Part shown: one piece after another, positions 2,955 to 53,514 of the stretch
Layout: the number at the start of each line of letters is the position of its first letter
Position numbering within the stretch: position 1 is the first letter of the stretch
Assembly (NCBI GenBank): GCA_964625065.1
Contig: CAZUZL010000004.1
Coordinates: 11,040-75,039 of the forward strand
Direction of reading: 5' to 3'
Source: an uncultured Candidatus Saccharibacteria bacterium
GTDB taxonomy: Bacteria > Patescibacteriota > Minisyncoccia > Phycocordibacterales > UBA9973
DNA length: 64,000 nt
Program-made: the position numbers and the translations under genes
Notes under the pieces: model-generated
What the model was told of the DNA's origin: nothing
What the model saw: only the letters and a program-made list of their open reading frames with translations
Database searches by the model: none

Positions 2955-3497
2955 TTACTGTCCGCATAACTGTATCGGTATGGGTGCATTATATTTACCC
3001 GTGCCTTGGTCAAATATAAACAGATTAATTTCTGAAACGTTAAACGCTTGTGGTAAATCCAAACCAGATGTTACTTTTCTTAAACCGGACTTAATCTCAC
3101 GATTTGAAATGTTATCAGACATCTTAGCCACCCAAATACATGGGTCATAAATGAGATTTTTTTTCTCACGAGGGTCGTTAAACATTCCTAACGAATTTTC
3201 CATCTTTTGATTTAGTTCTAGTAATTCTTCTGATTTAACAGATATTCCGAAGAAAGCAATAGTGGCTTTTACTTCCGACAAATTAATAGAAAATGGTGAT
3301 ACCGTGTTTGCAATAGAGCGAACAATGGATTCGACAAGTATATTGTCACTATTGATATCAGTATTATTTTGGCCCCATTTTACTGTAATACTACGTTCAA
3401 AATCAGAAGTTTCAAAATGTTCTGATAGTCCTTTTACAGCTTGGTCTATCTTGTTTTTTAATTCGTCATTAATTTTTATGGCTATTGAATATTTCAT
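2955..3497 (-). CDS. 2H phosphoesterase (LigT/ThpR-like) paralog with both catalytic His motifs degenerate
   Basis: It aligns along its length to the downstream paralog at 3673-4305. The positions of HITLK and HITVS read SITVKW and DPCIWVAKM here. Confidence 0.6.
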   Translation of the reverse strand: MKYSIAIKINDELKNKIDQAVKGLSEHFETSDFERSITVKWGQNNTDINSDNILVESIVRSIANTVSPFSINLSEVKATIAFFGISVKSEELLELNQKMENSLGMFNDPREKKNLIYDPCIWVAKMSDNISNREIKSGLRKVTSGLDLPQAFNVSEINLFIFDQGTGKYNAPIPIQLCGQ

Positions 3498-13925: not shown

Positions 13926-15248
13926 ATGAACATCTTGTCTATAGAAACAAGTTGCGACGAAACCGCAATAAGTATAGTTAGTGCAAACAACACTGACAAC
14001 CCAGATTTTAAAATACTAGGCAACACCGTTGCTACCCAAATAGAATTACATGCACAATATGGGGGTGTTTTTCCGATGATGGCAAAACGCGAACACAGCA
14101 AAAACATTATTCCTGTTTTAGTTGAAACTTTAAAGAAGGCTAATTTATATGTGGAAGAACCTCACCCCCGTCCCCTCTCCATAAACAATGGAGAGGGGCA
14201 AAGTTCAATACAAGAAATTCTAACTCGCGAACCTGAACTATTAGTTTTATGTAAAGAATATTTGCCACATATAGGCAAACCAGATGTAGATGTAATAGTT
14301 GTTACCAGTGGCCCAGGCTTAGAACCTGCATTATGGGTTGGTGTAAACTTTGCCAAAGCACTAAGTACACTGTGGAACATACCTGTGGTACCTGTAAACC
14401 ACATGGAAGGCCACATAATGAGCCCTATACTAACCGCGGACGGCACAATAAACGTTGAATTCCCTGCATTAGCGTTACTGATCAGTGGTGGCCATACAGA
14501 ACTAGTTTTAGTAAACAACTGGATGGACTATAAAAAAATAGGCCAAACACGCGACGACGCTGTCGGTGAAGCTTTCGACAAAGTTGCCCGCATGATGGAC
14601 CTACCCTACCCAGGTGGCCCGCAGATTTCAAAGTTAGCGGAAGAATGGCGGAATCTCCTCCTTAATCAAGGAGGAGTACCCGTAGGGGGAGGTGGTAACG
14701 AAATAAGTCACCACCCCGTCAGTAGTCGGCCTTTGAATGGAACGTTAGGCCGACACGATTCCGCAGAATCGACCCCTCCTCCACAAGGAGGGGAAATTAA
14801 ACTTCCCCGCCCAATGCTACACAGCAACGATTACGATTTTTCTTTCTCTGGTTTAAAAACAGCCGTGTTGTATGCAATTCAAGACATTAAAAAAGACGGC
14901 GGCGTACTAAATGACGACACTAAAAAACAAATAGCCTGTGAATTTGAAAACGCAGCAACAGATGTGCTATTAGCAAAAACATTCCGGGCCATAGTCGAAT
15001 ACGGCGTACAAACACTACTTATCGGTGGTGGTGTTGCTGCAAACAAATTTATTAAAAAATCTTTTACTGAAAAACAAACTGCCGAATACCCAGACCTAAA
15101 AATACTGTTACCTGAAAAAGACTTGTCTACAGACAACGCCCTAATGATAGCCATTGCTGGTTACTATAGGTACCAACACATCATGGCAGGCAACAAAAAA
15201 TTCCCACTAACCTTTGTGGCTAATGGGAATTGGGGGGTTGATTCTTAA
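13926..15248 (+). CDS. tsaD: tRNA N6-threonylcarbamoyladenosine synthase TsaD (Kae1/YgjD), carrying two in-frame insertions of palindromic repeat DNA
   Basis: IETSCDET, HMEGH, SGGHT, AVGEAFDKVAR, YPGGP, DFSFSGLKT and GGGVAANK are conserved. The protein is 440 aa against about 340 aa usually. The extra segments map to hairpin-rich DNA at 14155-14290 and 14650-14800. Confidence 0.9.
   Translation: MNILSIETSCDETAISIVSANNTDNPDFKILGNTVATQIELHAQYGGVFPMMAKREHSKNIIPVLVETLKKANLYVEEPHPRPLSINNGEGQSSIQEILTREPELLVLCKEYLPHIGKPDVDVIVVTSGPGLEPALWVGVNFAKALSTLWNIPVVPVNHMEGHIMSPILTADGTINVEFPALALLISGGHTELVLVNNWMDYKKIGQTRDDAVGEAFDKVARMMDLPYPGGPQISKLAEEWRNLLLNQGGVPVGGGGNEISHHPVSSRPLNGTLGRHDSAESTPPPQGGEIKLPRPMLHSNDYDFSFSGLKTAVLYAIQDIKKDGGVLNDDTKKQIACEFENAATDVLLAKTFRAIVEYGVQTLLIGGGVAANKFIKKSFTEKQTAEYPDLKILLPEKDLSTDNALMIAIAGYYRYQHIMAGNKKFPLTFVANGNWGVDS
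14172..14198. repeat. Perfect 10-bp-stem hairpin inside tsaD (first in-frame insertion)
   Basis: cccctctcc-ataaacaa-tggagagggg. The same stem type occurs at 51927-51949 (ccctctcc...ggagaggg). Confidence 0.6.
14650..14800. repeat. Palindromic dispersed repeat, copy B, inserted in-frame in tsaD
   Basis: Five consecutive hairpins: ctcctcc/ggaggag, ggtgg...ccacc, cggcct-ttgaatggaacgtt-aggccg, cgattccgcagaatcg, cccctcc/ggagggg. The core ggccgacacgattccgcagaatcg matches copy C at 54746-54790. Confidence 0.65.
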
Positions 15249-28700: not shown

Positions 28701-31529
28701 CTATACTGCTGCAATGTTTATAAGTCTGCCAGGGACGTATATTATTTTCTTTATTTCTTTACCTTCTAGCCACTGTAAAACTTTTTCGTTTTTCATTGCA
28801 ATAGACTCTACATCTGACTGTATTGCGTCAGTTGGTATTGTTATTTCAGCGCGAACTTTGCCGTTAACTTGCACACCGATGGTTACAGTGCTTGAAGTTA
28901 TTTTCTTAGGGTTGTATTTAGGCCATGGGCTTTGATGAATACTGTTTTTTGAAGACTCAAAAACCGCCCATAATTCGTCTGTAACATGCGGTGCAAATGG
29001 GGCCAGTAACTGTAAGAATGTTTTAAACATATCTACAGGCACAGTGGGTGCATTTTCAAATTCATTTAGACATATCATTAAACTAGATATTGCAGTATTG
29101 AATGCAAAGTTTTCTATATCTTCGGTAACTTTCTTAATGGTTTTATGTAAAGTTATGACAGTAGTTTCAGAAATAGCGGAAGCGGAGAACGATTTTGAAT
29201 GGTCTGGCTGAGCGATTTTTGCCGAAGGTGAAAAATGTCGCGAAGAGATCCCCGCCCGACCGAGTCCTTCGGGCAGGCGAGGACCTGAAAAATCGTTCTC
29301 CGGTGAAGCTATTATTTTTTGACCTAATCTCCAAACACGTTCAATAAACCGGCGTGAACCTATTATACTTTCAGTGTTCCATGGCTGGCTTGCAGTAAAC
29401 GGCCCCATAAACATTTCATATACACGTAATGTGTCTGCACCAAATGTTTTTATTATATCGTCTGGGTTTACTACATTACCCCAACGTTTAGACATTTTAC
29501 GGCCATCGGCAGCTAATATTAGACCCTGGTTGTACATTTTTTTAAACGGTTCTTCGGTATTTACTGAACCGATATCTTTCAAAAACTTATGCCAGAAACG
29601 TGAATACAACAAATGCCCGGTAACGTGTTCTGCACCGCCTACATACACGTCTACATTTTTCCAATATGCTATTTCTTTGTCACCTACTAACGACTTTGCA
29701 TTTTTCGGGTCCATATAACGTAGGAAATACCAAGAAGATCCCGCCCAACCCGGCATAGTGTTTGTTTCATAACCTTTATCTGTCCAAGACTTAACACCTG
29801 CCAACGGCCCCTCAGCCTTACCTGTAGGTTCGTACGACTTTACGTTTGGTAGTTCTAGTGGAAGTTTTTTAACTTCGTGTATTATTCCACCTTTGTCGCG
29901 GTATAGTGGAATAGGTTCGCCCCAGTAACGCTGACGTGCAAATATTGCATCACGCATTTTGTAGTTTGTTATAGTTCTGCCACCTACTGATTTTGTAATT
30001 TCTATTTTAGCTTTTTCTGAAGGCATTCCTGTAAATGAACCAGAATTTATTGCGTAACCCAAACCTGTATAACATTCGTACTGTAAATTTACTTCTACAT
30101 CTGACCAACTTCTTGAACCCATTGGTACAGGCTTAAGAGTTTTTTCGTCATTAAGGTTTACTGCAATAACTTTTTTAATATCTAATTTATATTTCTTTGC
30201 AAATTCAAAGTCGCGTTCGTCGTGCGCCGGTACAGACATAACAGCACCAGTACCATAACCAGCTAAAACATAGTCGGCCACCCATACAGGAACAGCTTCG
30301 CCGTTGGCTGGGTTTATAGCTTTTATACCTTTTAGTTCTACACCAGATTTTTCGTTGTTTTCTGTGCGTTCTTCATTTGTTTTGTTTTTAACTTGGCGTA
30401 TGTATGTTTCTACAACACTATAGTTTTGTATTTGTGTTTTGTTTTTTTCTATAAAGTCATGTTCTGGCGCTAATACAACAGCTGATACACCAAACAAAGT
30501 GTCTGCCCGTGTTGTAAACACAGTTATTTTGTCTGTACTGCCTTCAACTAAAAAGTCTATTTCTGCGCCTTCGCTTTTACCTATCCAGTTGTTTTGTATT
30601 GTTTTAATATGTTCGGGGAAATCGATGGTTTCTAGTCCACTGATCAAACGTTCAGCATATGCAGTTATGCGCATAGACCATTGGCGTATTGTCATTTTTT
30701 CTACTGGGTATTCACCACGTTCAGAAACTTGTTTACCATCTTTGTCCACGATCTCATCATTTGCCAGCACGGTACCTAATTCCTGACACCAGTTTACTTC
30801 ACTGTCAGCTTCATAAGCCAGACGGTAGTGCATTAGTATTTCTTGTTTTTTTAATTCAGTAAAACCTTTCCACTGAATAGCAGAAAATGCAAAACGGTAT
30901 GTAGTATATGCATTACCATTTTTTACATAATCTTTATTACCCTTTGTTTCAAATATTTTTACTAATTGGTCTATAGACTGGGCTTTGTTTTTCTTTACAT
31001 CGTAGTACGAATTATAAAGTTGTAAGAATATCCATTGTGTCCATTTGTAGTATTCTGGGTCTGTAGTATTTATTCTACGTGTCCAGTCATAAGACAAACC
31101 TATTGCTGAAAGTTGTTTTTCAAAAGTTTTTACATTTATTTCCACTGCGCGTTTAGGGTGCACCTTATGTGCTATAGCGTACTGTTCCGCAGGTAAACCG
31201 AATGCATCGTAACCCATCGGGTGCAAAACATTGTAACCCTGCATGCGTTTATATTGTGCTAATACGTCAGACCCAATGTAGCCACGTGGGTGACCAACGT
31301 GCAAACCAGCCCCAGACGGGTATGGAAACATATCCAAAATATAGAAAGGCTTTTTTCCGCCAGCTGGCGGATTTTTCTTGGCGTCACTTGCCGACAGGGT
31401 TTTGTAAGTTTGATTTTTGTCCCACAGTTTTTGCCACTTTTTTTCAATAGCAAGGTGGTTGTAGTCCTTAATTTTTGCTGGTTTTTTAGCACCAGTGGAC
31501 GTGGTTTTTTTAGCCATATTTGTTTTCAT
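28701..31529 (-). CDS. leuS: Leucine--tRNA ligase carrying an in-frame insertion of a palindromic repeat. Start set at the ATG giving MKTNMAKK; the ATG at 31517 is also possible.
   Basis: HIGH-type motif PYPSGAGLHVGHPRGY, KMSKRWGN and CP1/editing-domain similarity. A 119-bp element flanked by terminal inverted repeats at 29182-29300 encodes an extra segment, ENDFSGPRLPEGLGRAGISSRHFSPSAKIAQPDHSKS, between the conserved VWRL and LHKTIKKVT. Confidence 0.9.
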   Translation of the reverse strand: MKTNMAKKTTSTGAKKPAKIKDYNHLAIEKKWQKLWDKNQTYKTLSASDAKKNPPAGGKKPFYILDMFPYPSGAGLHVGHPRGYIGSDVLAQYKRMQGYNVLHPMGYDAFGLPAEQYAIAHKVHPKRAVEINVKTFEKQLSAIGLSYDWTRRINTTDPEYYKWTQWIFLQLYNSYYDVKKNKAQSIDQLVKIFETKGNKDYVKNGNAYTTYRFAFSAIQWKGFTELKKQEILMHYRLAYEADSEVNWCQELGTVLANDEIVDKDGKQVSERGEYPVEKMTIRQWSMRITAYAERLISGLETIDFPEHIKTIQNNWIGKSEGAEIDFLVEGSTDKITVFTTRADTLFGVSAVVLAPEHDFIEKNKTQIQNYSVVETYIRQVKNKTNEERTENNEKSGVELKGIKAINPANGEAVPVWVADYVLAGYGTGAVMSVPAHDERDFEFAKKYKLDIKKVIAVNLNDEKTLKPVPMGSRSWSDVEVNLQYECYTGLGYAINSGSFTGMPSEKAKIEITKSVGGRTITNYKMRDAIFARQRYWGEPIPLYRDKGGIIHEVKKLPLELPNVKSYEPTGKAEGPLAGVKSWTDKGYETNTMPGWAGSSWYFLRYMDPKNAKSLVGDKEIAYWKNVDVYVGGAEHVTGHLLYSRFWHKFLKDIGSVNTEEPFKKMYNQGLILAADGRKMSKRWGNVVNPDDIIKTFGADTLRVYEMFMGPFTASQPWNTESIIGSRRFIERVWRLGQKIIASPENDFSGPRLPEGLGRAGISSRHFSPSAKIAQPDHSKSFSASAISETTVITLHKTIKKVTEDIENFAFNTAISSLMICLNEFENAPTVPVDMFKTFLQLLAPFAPHVTDELWAVFESSKNSIHQSPWPKYNPKKITSSTVTIGVQVNGKVRAEITIPTDAIQSDVESIAMKNEKVLQWLEGKEIKKIIYVPGRLINIAAV
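29182..29300. repeat. Palindromic dispersed repeat, copy D: a MITE-like element with 14-bp terminal inverted repeats, inserted in-frame in leuS
   Basis: Terminal inverted repeats cggagaacgatttt and aaaatcgttctccg. The internal ttgaatggtctggctgagcgattt matches the cores of copies A and B. A GC-rich internal hairpin is present. Confidence 0.6.
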
Positions 31530-31539
31530 GAATATATGC

Positions 31540-31589
31540 AGTATACCCCCACACCTAGTTTTTTGCAAAAAACTAGGTGTGGGGGTATA
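31540..31589 (-). promoter_or_regulatory. leuS promoter TTGCAA-N17-TATACT embedded in a perfect 48-bp palindrome; the ATG lies 10 nt after the -10
   Basis: tatacccccacacctagttttttgcaaaaaactaggtgtgggggtata is perfectly self-complementary. A related, partly palindromic copy lies at 20350-20405. Confidence 0.55.
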
Positions 31590-50061: not shown

Positions 50062-50940
50062 TTATTTTTCTATTATGCGAAGCTTGGCACTTCGACTCCG
50101 TGGGTTACTGCTAATTTCAGTATCGGTTGGAGTTATTGGTTTTTTAGTAATAATTTTCGCACCCTCTTCTTTTTTTGTATTAAAAAATTGTTTTACTATT
50201 CTGTCTTCTAATGAATGAAACGATATGCATGCTATGCGTCCGCCTGGGGCTAATACATTCCACGCTGCAGTTAAACCTTCGTTTATGTTGTCTAGTTCCT
50301 GGTTTACGGCTATGCGTATTGCTTGGAAGGTTCTAGTTGCGGGGTTTATCTTGCCGTTTCTGTATGAAGCCGGTACCGAGCCACGTATTATGTCTACTAG
50401 TTGCGTAGTGCGTGTTATTGGTTCTATAGCGCGTGCGGCAACGATGGCCTTAGCTATACGACGAGAATAACGTTCTTCGCCGAAACCATAGATGATAGTT
50501 GCTAGTGTTTCTTCGGCCCAGGTGTTTACTACGACCATTGCTGTAACACCGTCTTTGTTATGTTCCATTGTCATTAGTAGTGGTTCGTCTTTTGCAAAAG
50601 AAAACCCACGACCACTGGTGTCTATCTGTGGAGACGACAAACCAAAATCGAATAGTACACGGTTTACTTGATCTATTCCCTTAGTCTTTAATAAAGTTTC
50701 TAAGTTGCGGAATTCACCAAGTAAAAATGTTGCTTTGTAACCTTTGTTTTTAAAAAGAACTTCGGTACGGTCTAGGGCCGCTTGATCGCGGTCGATACCA
50801 ATAACCGATACTGTTGGGTAGCGCCCACACACACTGGCGCTGTGCCCGCCGGAACCCAGTGTTCCGTCGAGGAATGTGTCGCCGGGTTTAATGTCTAACC
50901 CATTGATACTTTCCTCTAATAAAACTGAAATGTGGTCCAT
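50062..50940 (-). CDS. rsmH: 16S rRNA (cytosine1402-N4)-methyltransferase RsmH (MraW)
   Basis: HISVLLEESINGL...DGTLGSGGHS SAM-binding motif. Length is 292 aa. It lies downstream of mraZ. Confidence 0.9.
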   Translation of the reverse strand: MDHISVLLEESINGLDIKPGDTFLDGTLGSGGHSASVCGRYPTVSVIGIDRDQAALDRTEVLFKNKGYKATFLLGEFRNLETLLKTKGIDQVNRVLFDFGLSSPQIDTSGRGFSFAKDEPLLMTMEHNKDGVTAMVVVNTWAEETLATIIYGFGEERYSRRIAKAIVAARAIEPITRTTQLVDIIRGSVPASYRNGKINPATRTFQAIRIAVNQELDNINEGLTAAWNVLAPGGRIACISFHSLEDRIVKQFFNTKKEEGAKIITKKPITPTDTEISSNPRSRSAKLRIIEK

Positions 50941-51924: not shown

Positions 51925-52025
51925 TTCCCTCTCCTTACCAAGGAGAGGGCTAGGGAGAGGTTCAGATCTAGCTAGGTCAACCTCTTCCGCCTTCGGCACC
52001 TTCTCCTTGGTAATGAGAAGGGCAA
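51925..52025. repeat. Cluster of three GC-rich hairpins of the same family as the tsaD insertions
   Basis: ccctctcc-ttacca-aggagaggg; ggagaggtt...aacctcttcc; ccttctc-cttggtaat-gagaagg. Confidence 0.55.
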
Positions 52026-52035
52026 CAACCACCTT

Positions 52036-53514
52036 TTAATTCTTCGGTCGCATTATCGGGAAGAAAACAGTATCACGTATATTTTTCTGGTCTGTCATTA
52101 TGGCAACTAGTCTGTCTATACCCATACCGAACCCTGTCATAGGTGGCATGCCGTACTCCATAGCAGTTAGGAAACGTTCGTCGACTTGCATCGCCTCTTC
52201 GTCGCCAGCGTCCTTAGCCTTGGCTTGGGCTTCTAGTAAACTACGTTGTACTATAGGGTTTACAAGTTCGGCGTATTGGTTAGTTATTTCCGCACCACCT
52301 ATTATCAGTTGTGCTACACGGGCAGTACCGTCGGCATTTTGCTGTGCTAGTGGCTTTAAGTCTGCTGGGTAGTCTAGTACAAATGTAGGGTGCACAAGTT
52401 TACCACGAGCAGTTTTTTTATAAATATGGTCTAGCAAATTACCACGTCCAGTTTTTTCAGCTTCAGTTTTATCTAACCCAAGTTCTATTGCCTTGGCACG
52501 CACGTCGTCTAGCGTAGCGTTCATATCAAAATCTGCATATTGTTTTAACAAATCTGCAAAACGTACACGTGGCCATTCTTTACTAAAGTCTACATCTATA
52601 TCGGCACCTTCTTTGTCGTAAACAGTAAATACGTTTTTACCAACAACATCAGTTGCTATACCGCGTAGCATTTGTTCGGTCCATAACATATTTGTTTCCA
52701 AAGATTCGTATGCAGCGTACCATTCTATCATGCTAAATTCCTGCATATGTGTTGGGTCGGTACCTTCGTTACGAAAGTTTTTACCTATTTCATATACACG
52801 TGGGTAACCACCGACCATAAGCATTTTATGTTCTAGTTCCAATGCAATACGTAGCACCATAGGCATGTCGTAGTCGTTGTGGTGTGTGTTAAAAGTACGT
52901 GCCATTGCCCCACCGGCCTGGTTTTGCAATACAGGTGTTTCTATTTCTAAAAAGTCTTTTGTATTAAAAAAGTTTCTAATATAGGTAACCATTTTTGAAC
53001 GGACTATAAAACGGTTTCTGGTTTCTTCGTTCATTAGTATGTCTAGGTAACGTTTACGCTGAGTTTCTTCTACATCCTGTATACCGTTCCATTTGTCTGG
53101 CAATGCTAATAAACTTTTTGTAAGTATTTTCCAACTTGTAACTAACAACGAGTTCTGCCCTGCCTTGGTAACAAACAAGTTGCCTGTAACTTGGATAAAG
53201 TCACCTATATCTGCCGCATCTGTAAATAAAGCAAAAAGTTTTTCATCTATGTCGTCTTTTTTGAAAACAACTTGGAATTTTTCTGTACCGTCAAACAGTG
53301 TTACAAACAGTATTGCACCCTGTCCACGAATAGACATTATACGGCCAGCCAGAGATATTTCCCCGCCTTTTGTTTTCAGTGTTTCAAACTGTTTTGTAAG
53401 TTCTGCCAATGTGTAGTCGTGCTCGACATCACCCGCATATGGGGCCATGCCAGCGTCGACTAGTAATTGCATTTTCTGCATGCGCACAGCGCGAAGTTCT
53501 TCATAAGTAGCCAT
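52036..53514 (-). CDS. lysS: Lysine--tRNA ligase (class II)
   Basis: N-terminal OB-fold anticodon-binding domain, motif 2 FRNEG, and motif 3 GMPPMTGFGMGIDRLVA. Length is 492 aa. Confidence 0.9.
   Translation of the reverse strand: MATYEELRAVRMQKMQLLVDAGMAPYAGDVEHDYTLAELTKQFETLKTKGGEISLAGRIMSIRGQGAILFVTLFDGTEKFQVVFKKDDIDEKLFALFTDAADIGDFIQVTGNLFVTKAGQNSLLVTSWKILTKSLLALPDKWNGIQDVEETQRKRYLDILMNEETRNRFIVRSKMVTYIRNFFNTKDFLEIETPVLQNQAGGAMARTFNTHHNDYDMPMVLRIALELEHKMLMVGGYPRVYEIGKNFRNEGTDPTHMQEFSMIEWYAAYESLETNMLWTEQMLRGIATDVVGKNVFTVYDKEGADIDVDFSKEWPRVRFADLLKQYADFDMNATLDDVRAKAIELGLDKTEAEKTGRGNLLDHIYKKTARGKLVHPTFVLDYPADLKPLAQQNADGTARVAQLIIGGAEITNQYAELVNPIVQRSLLEAQAKAKDAGDEEAMQVDERFLTAMEYGMPPMTGFGMGIDRLVAIMTDQKNIRDTVFFPIMRPKN

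Follow-up and report, generated by a model that had tools for sequence, protein, structure and literature searches.

The leucyl-tRNA synthetase gene (leuS) in a 64,000-nucleotide (nt) stretch of contig CAZUZL010000004.1, which derives from an uncultured Candidatus Saccharibacteria bacterium and is hereafter called the window, carries within its reading frame a palindromic repeat element of 120 base pairs (bp), or 40 codons, at positions 29183-29302. This segment is likely a vertically inherited and partly decayed copy of a dispersed, non-coding palindromic family of Patescibacteria, that is, selfish DNA working in the manner of the Rickettsia palindromic elements (RPEs). The host gene, recognized from its open reading frame (ORF) and translation, occupies 28701-31517 on the minus strand and encodes 938 amino acids (aa) from an ATG at 31517, an alternative start being the ATG at 31529. 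The family core lies on the plus strand, antisense to leuS, and the element corresponds to LeuS residues ~739-779. An earlier note on this DNA had proposed that a 119-bp element bounded by 14-bp inverted repeats adds about 35 aa to LeuS; the repeats are present and perfect, although the boundaries were one to two bases off and the true figures are 120 bp and 40 codons. Its view that the segment is a small palindromic repeat of a dispersed family is confirmed by the finding of the same core at ~42 copies, and it is in the family so revealed, rather than in the leuS copy itself, that the interest lies.

The link between the leuS element and the family is provided by covariance model R2, which was trained on other copies only, the window sequence being left out. 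It matches the window at 29173-29314 with 55.7 bits and an expectation value (E) of 3.6e-9, and since the model was built without the window, this detection places the leuS element beyond chance. The family plan consists of a copy-specific arm, a T-run with TGAAT GGTCTGGCCGAGC, a variable hairpin, GGCGAGGAGAACCGAGGACC TGAA with an A-run, and the complementary arm, the asymmetric core being abbreviated as TGAAT-GGTCTGGCCGAGC-[variable hairpin]-GCGAGGAGAACCGAGGACC-TGAA. The conserved core of ~45 nt is nearly invariant, the inner hairpin is optional and the proximal stem is A/T-rich; copy units measure 64-120 bp and have no coding capacity of their own. A conserved centre and variable arms that pair are visible in an alignment of six leuS copies. 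Covariance model R1, built from these six, gave no match outside leuS in 225 kilobases (kb), which for a time suggested a leuS-specific element; this was contradicted by a scan of metagenomes with a pattern restricted to the core (GGTCTGRCYGA N12-42 CGAGGACCTGAA). The scan returned 48 loci where ~3.5 were expected by our own estimate, and at all 34 loci of low guanine-plus-cytosine (GC) content the architecture is complete, down to core positions that the pattern left free. The other 14, of GC >=0.48, lack the flanking architecture and were rejected as chance matches, and the single match in a scan of viral contigs with the core pattern was taken as the same GC-0.48 chance match, the two contigs being of equal length (41,946). 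Model R2 brings the total to ~42 copies, located on low-GC Patescibacteria contigs, several of which hold more than one (three within 3.8 kb on L015, three on L035, and two each on L033, L053, L031, L038 and L026).

Pairing of the arms is a property of the family as a whole. In an alignment of 30 sequences, 92.4% of the stem cells are paired, compared to 71.1% in shuffles, both-sided changes occur in 14 of the 16 outer-stem pairs, and the covariation score is 0.526, as against 0.139 in shuffles and at most 0.21 in slid controls. Searches of Rfam 15 with the window copy (E <= 10) and with five loci that hold canonical copies (E <= 1) gave no relevant match, and a full-text search of the literature, incomplete in its coverage, found no description of such elements in Patescibacteria.

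The anatomy of the leuS element, given here on the plus strand, conforms to this plan. The outer stem is formed by the left arm CGGAGAACGATTTT (29183-29196) and the right arm AAAATCGTTCTCCG (29289-29302), which are perfect complements of each other, and the pairing extends imperfectly to 25 nt (29172-29313, 84%). The 5' half of the conserved core, TGAAT GGTCTGGCTGAGC at 29196-29213, was delimited by the family alignments A3 and A4 and by alignment to R2, and differs from the family consensus GGTCTGGCCGAGC by one C>T change. It is followed by the variable inner hairpin GATTTTTGCC GAAG GTGAAAAATGTC (29214-29239), which is identical in the relative L001 and has comparable hairpins at this place in the long-form copies. 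The 3' core, also placed by the family alignments, is split into a first part, GCGAAGAGATC (29240-29250; consensus GCGAGGAGAAC or ..GATC), and a second part, CGAGGACC TGAA (29278-29289; aligned to R2 as well), by a nested GC-rich mini-hairpin of 27 nt, CCCGCCCGA-loop-TCGGGCAGG, at 29251-29277, whose boundaries are uncertain by 1-2 nt and which is missing from the near-identical copy in L001. The earlier note had rightly recognized this internal hairpin (stem halves 29251-29259 and 29269-29277) as well as the in-frame read-through: within the 938-aa ORF the element reads stop-free as ...SPENDFSGPRLPEGLGRAGISSRHFSPSAKIAQPDHSKSFSAS.... With a GC of 0.56-0.65 the element stands out from the window (0.375), and its two strands fold at -57.6 and -60.5 kcal/mol (z = -5.8 and -4.8), none of 200 shuffles being as good. 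The exact 14-mer arms do not recur in the window, where the remaining matches carry three mismatches and are at chance level, and a blastn search of the element against the window gave no second copy. A likeness of TGGCCGAGC to the D-arm of tRNA-Ser/Leu was dropped, the remainder of a tRNA being missing, and ARAGORN reported no tRNA-like gene at the element.

The nested mini-hairpin belongs to a small second repeat, a GC-rich hairpin of 27-30 nt with the stem C(C/T)GCCCGA / TCGGGC(A/G)G and a variable loop of 9-12 nt. Three copies, all in-frame, were found in 484 kb of low-GC DNA, where ~0.001 are expected by our own estimate: the one in the leuS element (29251-29277), one in the leuS remnant of L005 (10765-10792) and one in a 266-aa ORF of L041 (2963-2990). 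In the leuS gene of L005 the hairpin, of 30 nt and with the stem CCTGCCCGA...TCGGGCGGG of the 27-nt insert in the window, stands elsewhere in the gene.

The age of the leuS element can be read from its relatives. The leuS gene of L001 (P0012) carries nearly base for base the same element, minus the 27 nt at window positions 29251-29277, and one arm pair is altered on both sides relative to the window (CGGAG/CTCCG to CAGAG/CTCTG). That of L004 (P0001) has the same internal core between very different but complementary arms, AAAGCAATTCT and AGAATTGCTTT, while those of L002 and L003 (P0003) and of L005 (P0004) retain only one arm, TGAAT-GGTCTGGCTGAGC and part of the inner hairpin. From their sequences, the latter are deletion derivatives in which about half of the element is kept, and AAAAAT is found at both ends of the deletion that separates L002 from the window. 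At the same connector the element is also present in the more distant LeuS genes of L010, L011, L012 and L018, in L012 in reversed orientation, and the P0002 LeuS, known from its protein only, reads ...RSGR...EIRGPEN..., as would be expected from a flipped element. Since homologous copies or remnants occupy the same leuS site in at least four relatives, the element is older than the divergence of these lineages. As judged by these sequence comparisons, the window copy is thus an old, vertically inherited and partly decayed one, which later gained the nested insertion and substitutions in its core, and it is probably inert. The proposal of the earlier note that an active or recently active element is seen at leuS is therefore not upheld. 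A 22-mer specific to the arm, searched against 185,579 species genomes, matched two known leuS relatives, once per genome each, in addition to two chance matches; as arms are copy-specific, it is the wrong probe for the family.

The insert lies in a part of LeuS that tolerates additional sequence. The source organism is a Paceibacteria/Minisyncoccia-like member of the Patescibacteria, and the nearest homologues of the window LeuS are LeuS proteins of Patescibacteria (best matches 79-84% identical). Structures of leucyl-tRNA synthetase (LeuRS) match it with E = 3.9e-179, with a gap at query residues 730-789 against residues 693-724 of the T. thermophilus enzyme. Relative to these structures the insert is placed in the connector that joins the FIERVWR helix to the LHKTIKKVTEDIE helix. 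This linker comprises 61 aa in the window, compared to a modal length of 20 aa among 120 Patescibacteria LeuS homologues, so that the insert adds ~40 residues to the inter-domain linker and is, as the earlier note supposed, an insertion relative to most LeuS. Hairpin-type inserts unrelated to the family are found at the same connector in many other Patescibacteria lineages (P0024, P0050, P0058, P0084, P0049, P0034 and others; L013 12014-12160), giving peptides such as TPHPSPLLKGEGA and SPQPSPKGRE...PFGEDLGGV. The occurrence of such unrelated inserts in many lineages suggests that the connector is a general hotspot, or a permissive site, for palindromic insertions.

The copies outside leuS are likewise mostly intragenic. 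Thirty of the 42 lie inside ORFs of at least 150 aa, 21 antisense and nine sense to the host gene and in several frames. According to Pfam the host genes encode PheT, RsmA/KsgA, ValS, MnmA, GatB, a class-V aminotransferase, UvrD/PcrA, TrmD, the CCA-adding enzyme and TsaD; with LeuS this makes 11 host gene families, and Pfam domains are found on both sides of the insert in these hosts. The copy in ValS is found in the counterpart of the LeuS connector. The copies not located in such ORFs lie between genes, and some of them resemble terminator hairpins. Depending on strand and frame the same DNA is read differently: antisense as SGPRFSS, QVLGSPR or FRSS... and as ARPDHSK, LGQTIK or SARPFK, and in the sense direction as NGLAE or RSGRA and as ENRGPE or RRTEDL. 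The consensus is free of stops in all three antisense frames, which fits the 21:9 bias in orientation, and the core is also stop-free in one frame of the other strand. Three sense copies stand in the frame in which TGAAT would yield TGA, and all three have TCAC instead. The UvrD-like ORF of L015 (2220-3758) contains, at ~3300-3400 and immediately upstream of its family copy, another palindromic in-frame insert of different sequence, ...QNFLSRGSRPVLREGRSEENFAQ...; as this ORF holds inserts of two kinds, one gene can carry several different hairpin inserts.

Comparisons between copies bear on the dynamics of the family. The CCA-enzyme genes of L041 and L052 are 82% identical in the aligned region, where flanks and arms stand in gene orientation and the core is inverted. 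Opposite orientations at the same site are also found in PheT (L014 compared to L031) and in LeuS (L012 compared to the others), which means that the core flips in place between its arms. The three copies on L015 (in RsmA, intergenic and in UvrD) have a common core region, the variable part included, and two of them have an identical 68-nt centre between distal arms that are different yet complementary, while the two copies on L038 have their arms as well as the core in common. Cores would accordingly be homogenised or recently copied within genomes, whereas the arms have a partly independent history. No consistent direct repeat was seen outside the stems of 39 copies, in a comparison that included no true empty sites, and the flanking target-site duplication that the earlier note had proposed to look for did not appear. 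Nor was any insertion sequence (IS) with the ends of the element seen in the window or in the loci. Genes for Y1_Tnp proteins (IS200-like or RAYT-like HUH enzymes; RAYT, REP-associated tyrosine transposase; REP, repetitive extragenic palindrome) are located on L013 (20481-21224) and L031 (5450-5944), both of them contigs with hairpin inserts, and share 34% identity at the protein level. On L031 the gene lies ~3 kb from the nearest copy and is not flanked by copies. Among the contigs examined, homologues were found on these two only, and none in the window. Y1_Tnp is a possible mobilising enzyme and serves as a lead only.

The closest analogue, in terms of general behaviour, is the group of RPEs, small palindromic repeats of which many lie in-frame in unrelated essential genes and for which there is no known transposase (Ogata et al. 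2000 Science 290:347, as summarised in PMC10969869). Both families consist of non-autonomous palindromic units of ~65-150 bp in small, reduced genomes, a large share of the copies of both is in-frame in unrelated housekeeping genes, the added peptide being thought compatible with the fold, and no transposase or clear target duplication is known for either. The likeness is a functional analogy and no sequence homology is claimed, the hosts being Patescibacteria here and Alphaproteobacteria there. Further differences are features of the Patescibacteria family: a conserved core of ~45 nt, copy-specific arms, the use of both orientations and several frames, flipping in situ and presence across deeply diverged lineages.

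[quoted passage not shown] Classical examples (Correia/NEMIS, ERIC, Nezha) resemble the leuS family in being short, multi-copy, hairpin-forming and non-coding, and in lying occasionally within genes as in-frame fusions. However, their shared terminal repeats and target duplications are not seen in the leuS family, in which the arms differ in every copy and only the core and the A/T-rich proximal stem are shared. Contrary to what the earlier note had assumed, the 14-bp arms of the window copy are therefore not family terminal repeats, and its designation of the element as MITE-like is not justified in the strict sense, because neither shared terminal repeats nor a target duplication were seen and because no autonomous partner was identified. 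REPs, on the other hand, are almost entirely extragenic, a REPIN being two inverted copies of one REP. The leuS family resembles the REP/REPIN-RAYT systems in that hairpin repeats are long maintained, are similar within a genome and show compensatory changes in their stems, in that a hairpin of single-stranded DNA is the likely substrate, and in the Y1_Tnp homologues on two of the contigs examined. It differs in that its copies are mostly intragenic and its conserved part is asymmetric and central, features that exclude it from the REP/REPIN group, and any linkage to a RAYT gene is putative.

Taken together, these observations are best accommodated by the following course of events. In an ancestor of the clade the element would have entered LeuRS at a permissive linker that joins the catalytic body to the anticodon-binding helices, where it would be translated as a loop of ~40 residues, predicted to be unstructured, and would persist because it keeps the reading frame and is free of stop codons. 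Later in this lineage the 27-nt GC-rich hairpin repeat was inserted in-frame and point changes arose in the core. Complementarity of the arms may be kept by arm-to-arm gene conversion accompanying inversion of the core in situ, and spread between sites may proceed via a single-stranded DNA hairpin intermediate acted on in trans by an enzyme, for which a Y1/HUH transposase is one candidate.

Several points weigh against the proposal of selfish, RPE-like DNA. Mobility of the family is derived from its dispersal only, as neither an empty/filled polymorphism nor a transposase was found, and the L015 copies that differ in their arms are not explained by simple cut-and-paste or copy-and-paste of a fixed unit. 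The 64-kb window contains a single core-bearing copy according to R2, and this, together with the occurrence of the 22-mer once per genome in two relatives, suggests that the family may be inactive in this lineage. The core pattern used in the metagenome scan biases the sample towards conserved cores, and the core is conserved so strongly that a function, for example as a protein-binding site or RNA, could lie behind it. In addition, it is the maintenance of open frames that argues for translation of the inserts, a reading taken from the sequences themselves. In the AlphaFold model helices 715-737 and 784-803 enclose LeuS residues 740-781, which have no secondary structure and a predicted local distance difference test (pLDDT) score below 50; as the overall quality of the model is low (mean pLDDT 64), its support for an unstructured loop is weak.

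A function of the core is the basis of the rival that survives best, in which the element is a structured nucleic acid (a protein-binding DNA or RNA motif, a non-coding RNA or a ribozyme) kept by selection, the core being the active part and the arms closing the helix. Functional RNAs typically combine an invariant core with a closing stem that covaries, cores within a genome are identical while arms differ, and orthologous positions are kept across lineages. However, the occurrence of either orientation and the flips in situ mean that no single transcript strand is conserved, most copies are located in unrelated coding sequences and others between genes, no Rfam family matches, and copies decay or are half deleted with no apparent consequence for the host gene. 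Stem covariation may also be explained without selection on structure, since one arm would be converted to the sequence of its partner when inverted arms recombine. We therefore regard a functional nucleic acid as unlikely. Ribosome-bypassed GC-rich hairpin inserts are known in yeast mitochondria, and the hairpin that the leuS element forms in the mRNA is very stable (-57.6 kcal/mol), which would be in line with a segment that is absent from LeuRS through intron-like excision of the RNA at a helix-loop-helix or through translational bypassing. This is very unlikely, as every coding copy stays open through the whole element in the frame used, those in the TGA frame carrying TCA, and as insert lengths keep the downstream frame, which would be needless if the segment were removed. 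More improbable still is a local origin of the palindrome within leuS, where template switching or the extension of a quasi-palindrome would have produced it in a hypervariable linker, with no mobile family involved: the linker is a hotspot of unrelated hairpins in many lineages, imperfect pairing reaches into the flanking leuS sequence and the loops of the nested mini-hairpins resemble neighbouring sequence, but the same ~45-nt core recurs at more than 40 loci, both between genes and inside unrelated ones, and the independently trained model finds the window copy at E = 3.6e-9. Least probable of all is a lineage-specific loop selected at the protein level as a LeuRS extension with a function of its own, which would agree with its retention in several related lineages but not with conservation at the nucleotide rather than the peptide level, with the reading of the same DNA as unrelated peptides across hosts and orientations (SGPRFSS, QVLGSPR, NGLAE, RSGRA) or with the loss of half of the insert, or the carriage of a flipped copy (P0002), in close relatives.

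If the leuS element is a decayed copy of a selfish palindromic family, as we consider likely, a wider proposal may be put forward tentatively and with more doubt than confidence. The family would then represent a phylum-wide and undescribed class of mobile DNA hairpin, in which the core is invariant and homogenised within genomes, acts as the recognition site of a dedicated enzyme, possibly a Y1/HUH transposase, and flips in situ, while the arms are re-created or converted at each site; such hairpins would survive preferentially in essential, translation-related genes and be a general source of lineage-specific protein insertions. Patescibacteria have very small genomes with mostly essential genes, and many of their proteins hold unexplained lineage-specific insertions. 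If one family explains the in-frame inserts in LeuS, ValS, PheT, GatB, RsmA, TsaD, TrmD, MnmA, UvrD and the CCA-adding enzyme, selfish DNA would be seen to have colonised essential coding sequence in a second clear case after that of Rickettsia, and the family would offer a concrete mechanism for the growth of protein length in this radiation. The inserts would also act as natural markers for those loops of essential enzymes that are permissive, and the covariance model would flag those that distort alignments, phylogenies and structure predictions. Complementary yet copy-specific arms, combined with flipping in situ, pose a mechanistic question beyond standard models of transposition.

The window contains a probable second, more degenerate trace of the family. 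In tsaD (13926-15248) a GC-rich insert is found between ...PGGPQISKLAEE and LPRPMLHS, and within it a probable core fragment on the plus strand, GTCGGCC TTTGAATGG AACGTTA GGCCGAC, at 14725-14754, recognized by its motif and by the TsaD copy of L057. The motif TTGAATGG N0-10 GGCYGA, whose N0-10 gap was added after both sequences had been seen, has just two matches in the window, at 14733 (tsaD) and 29195 (leuS), and none in 100 shuffles. A canonical family copy is located in the TsaD of L057 at exactly the protein site of the window tsaD insert; R2 does not detect the latter even at E <= 10 with filters off. As far as its sequence allows a judgement, the tsaD segment is a probable degenerate remnant of the family core among other small hairpins. 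The earlier claim that leuS is the second essential gene hit by the same family thus stands in part, being supported by the restriction of the motif to these two genes and by the site in L057, while in the window tsaD itself only a core fragment remains. Short hairpins of the form CCCCTCTCC-loop-GGAGAGGGG are also present in tsaD (14172-14198, 14652-14680 and 14773-14793), where all three are in-frame and yield peptides such as PLSINNGEG and PPPQGGE, and as an intergenic pair (51927-51949 and 51999-52021) downstream of the ORF at 52036-53514. These hairpins do not belong to the leuS family, and are probably what the earlier note had listed as its other copies.

Three further features of leuS and its surroundings were noted. 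A second variable region of LeuS, at residues ~453-485 (window ~30060-30160; NDEKTLKPVPMGSRSWSDVEVNLQYECYTGLGY), exceeds that of the closest relatives in length, has low confidence in the model and is not GC-rich. Many Patescibacteria LeuS proteins of ~1000-1290 aa (P0006, P0007, P0013, P0014 and others) contain an inserted NUDIX domain (PF00293), some of them with further domains; these are unrelated to the repeat. Finally, a perfect 48-nt palindrome is located directly upstream of the leuS start codon (31542-31589) and a second long palindrome at 50572-50617, both centred on TTTGCAAA, which may represent an operator, a bidirectional terminator or another type of repeat.

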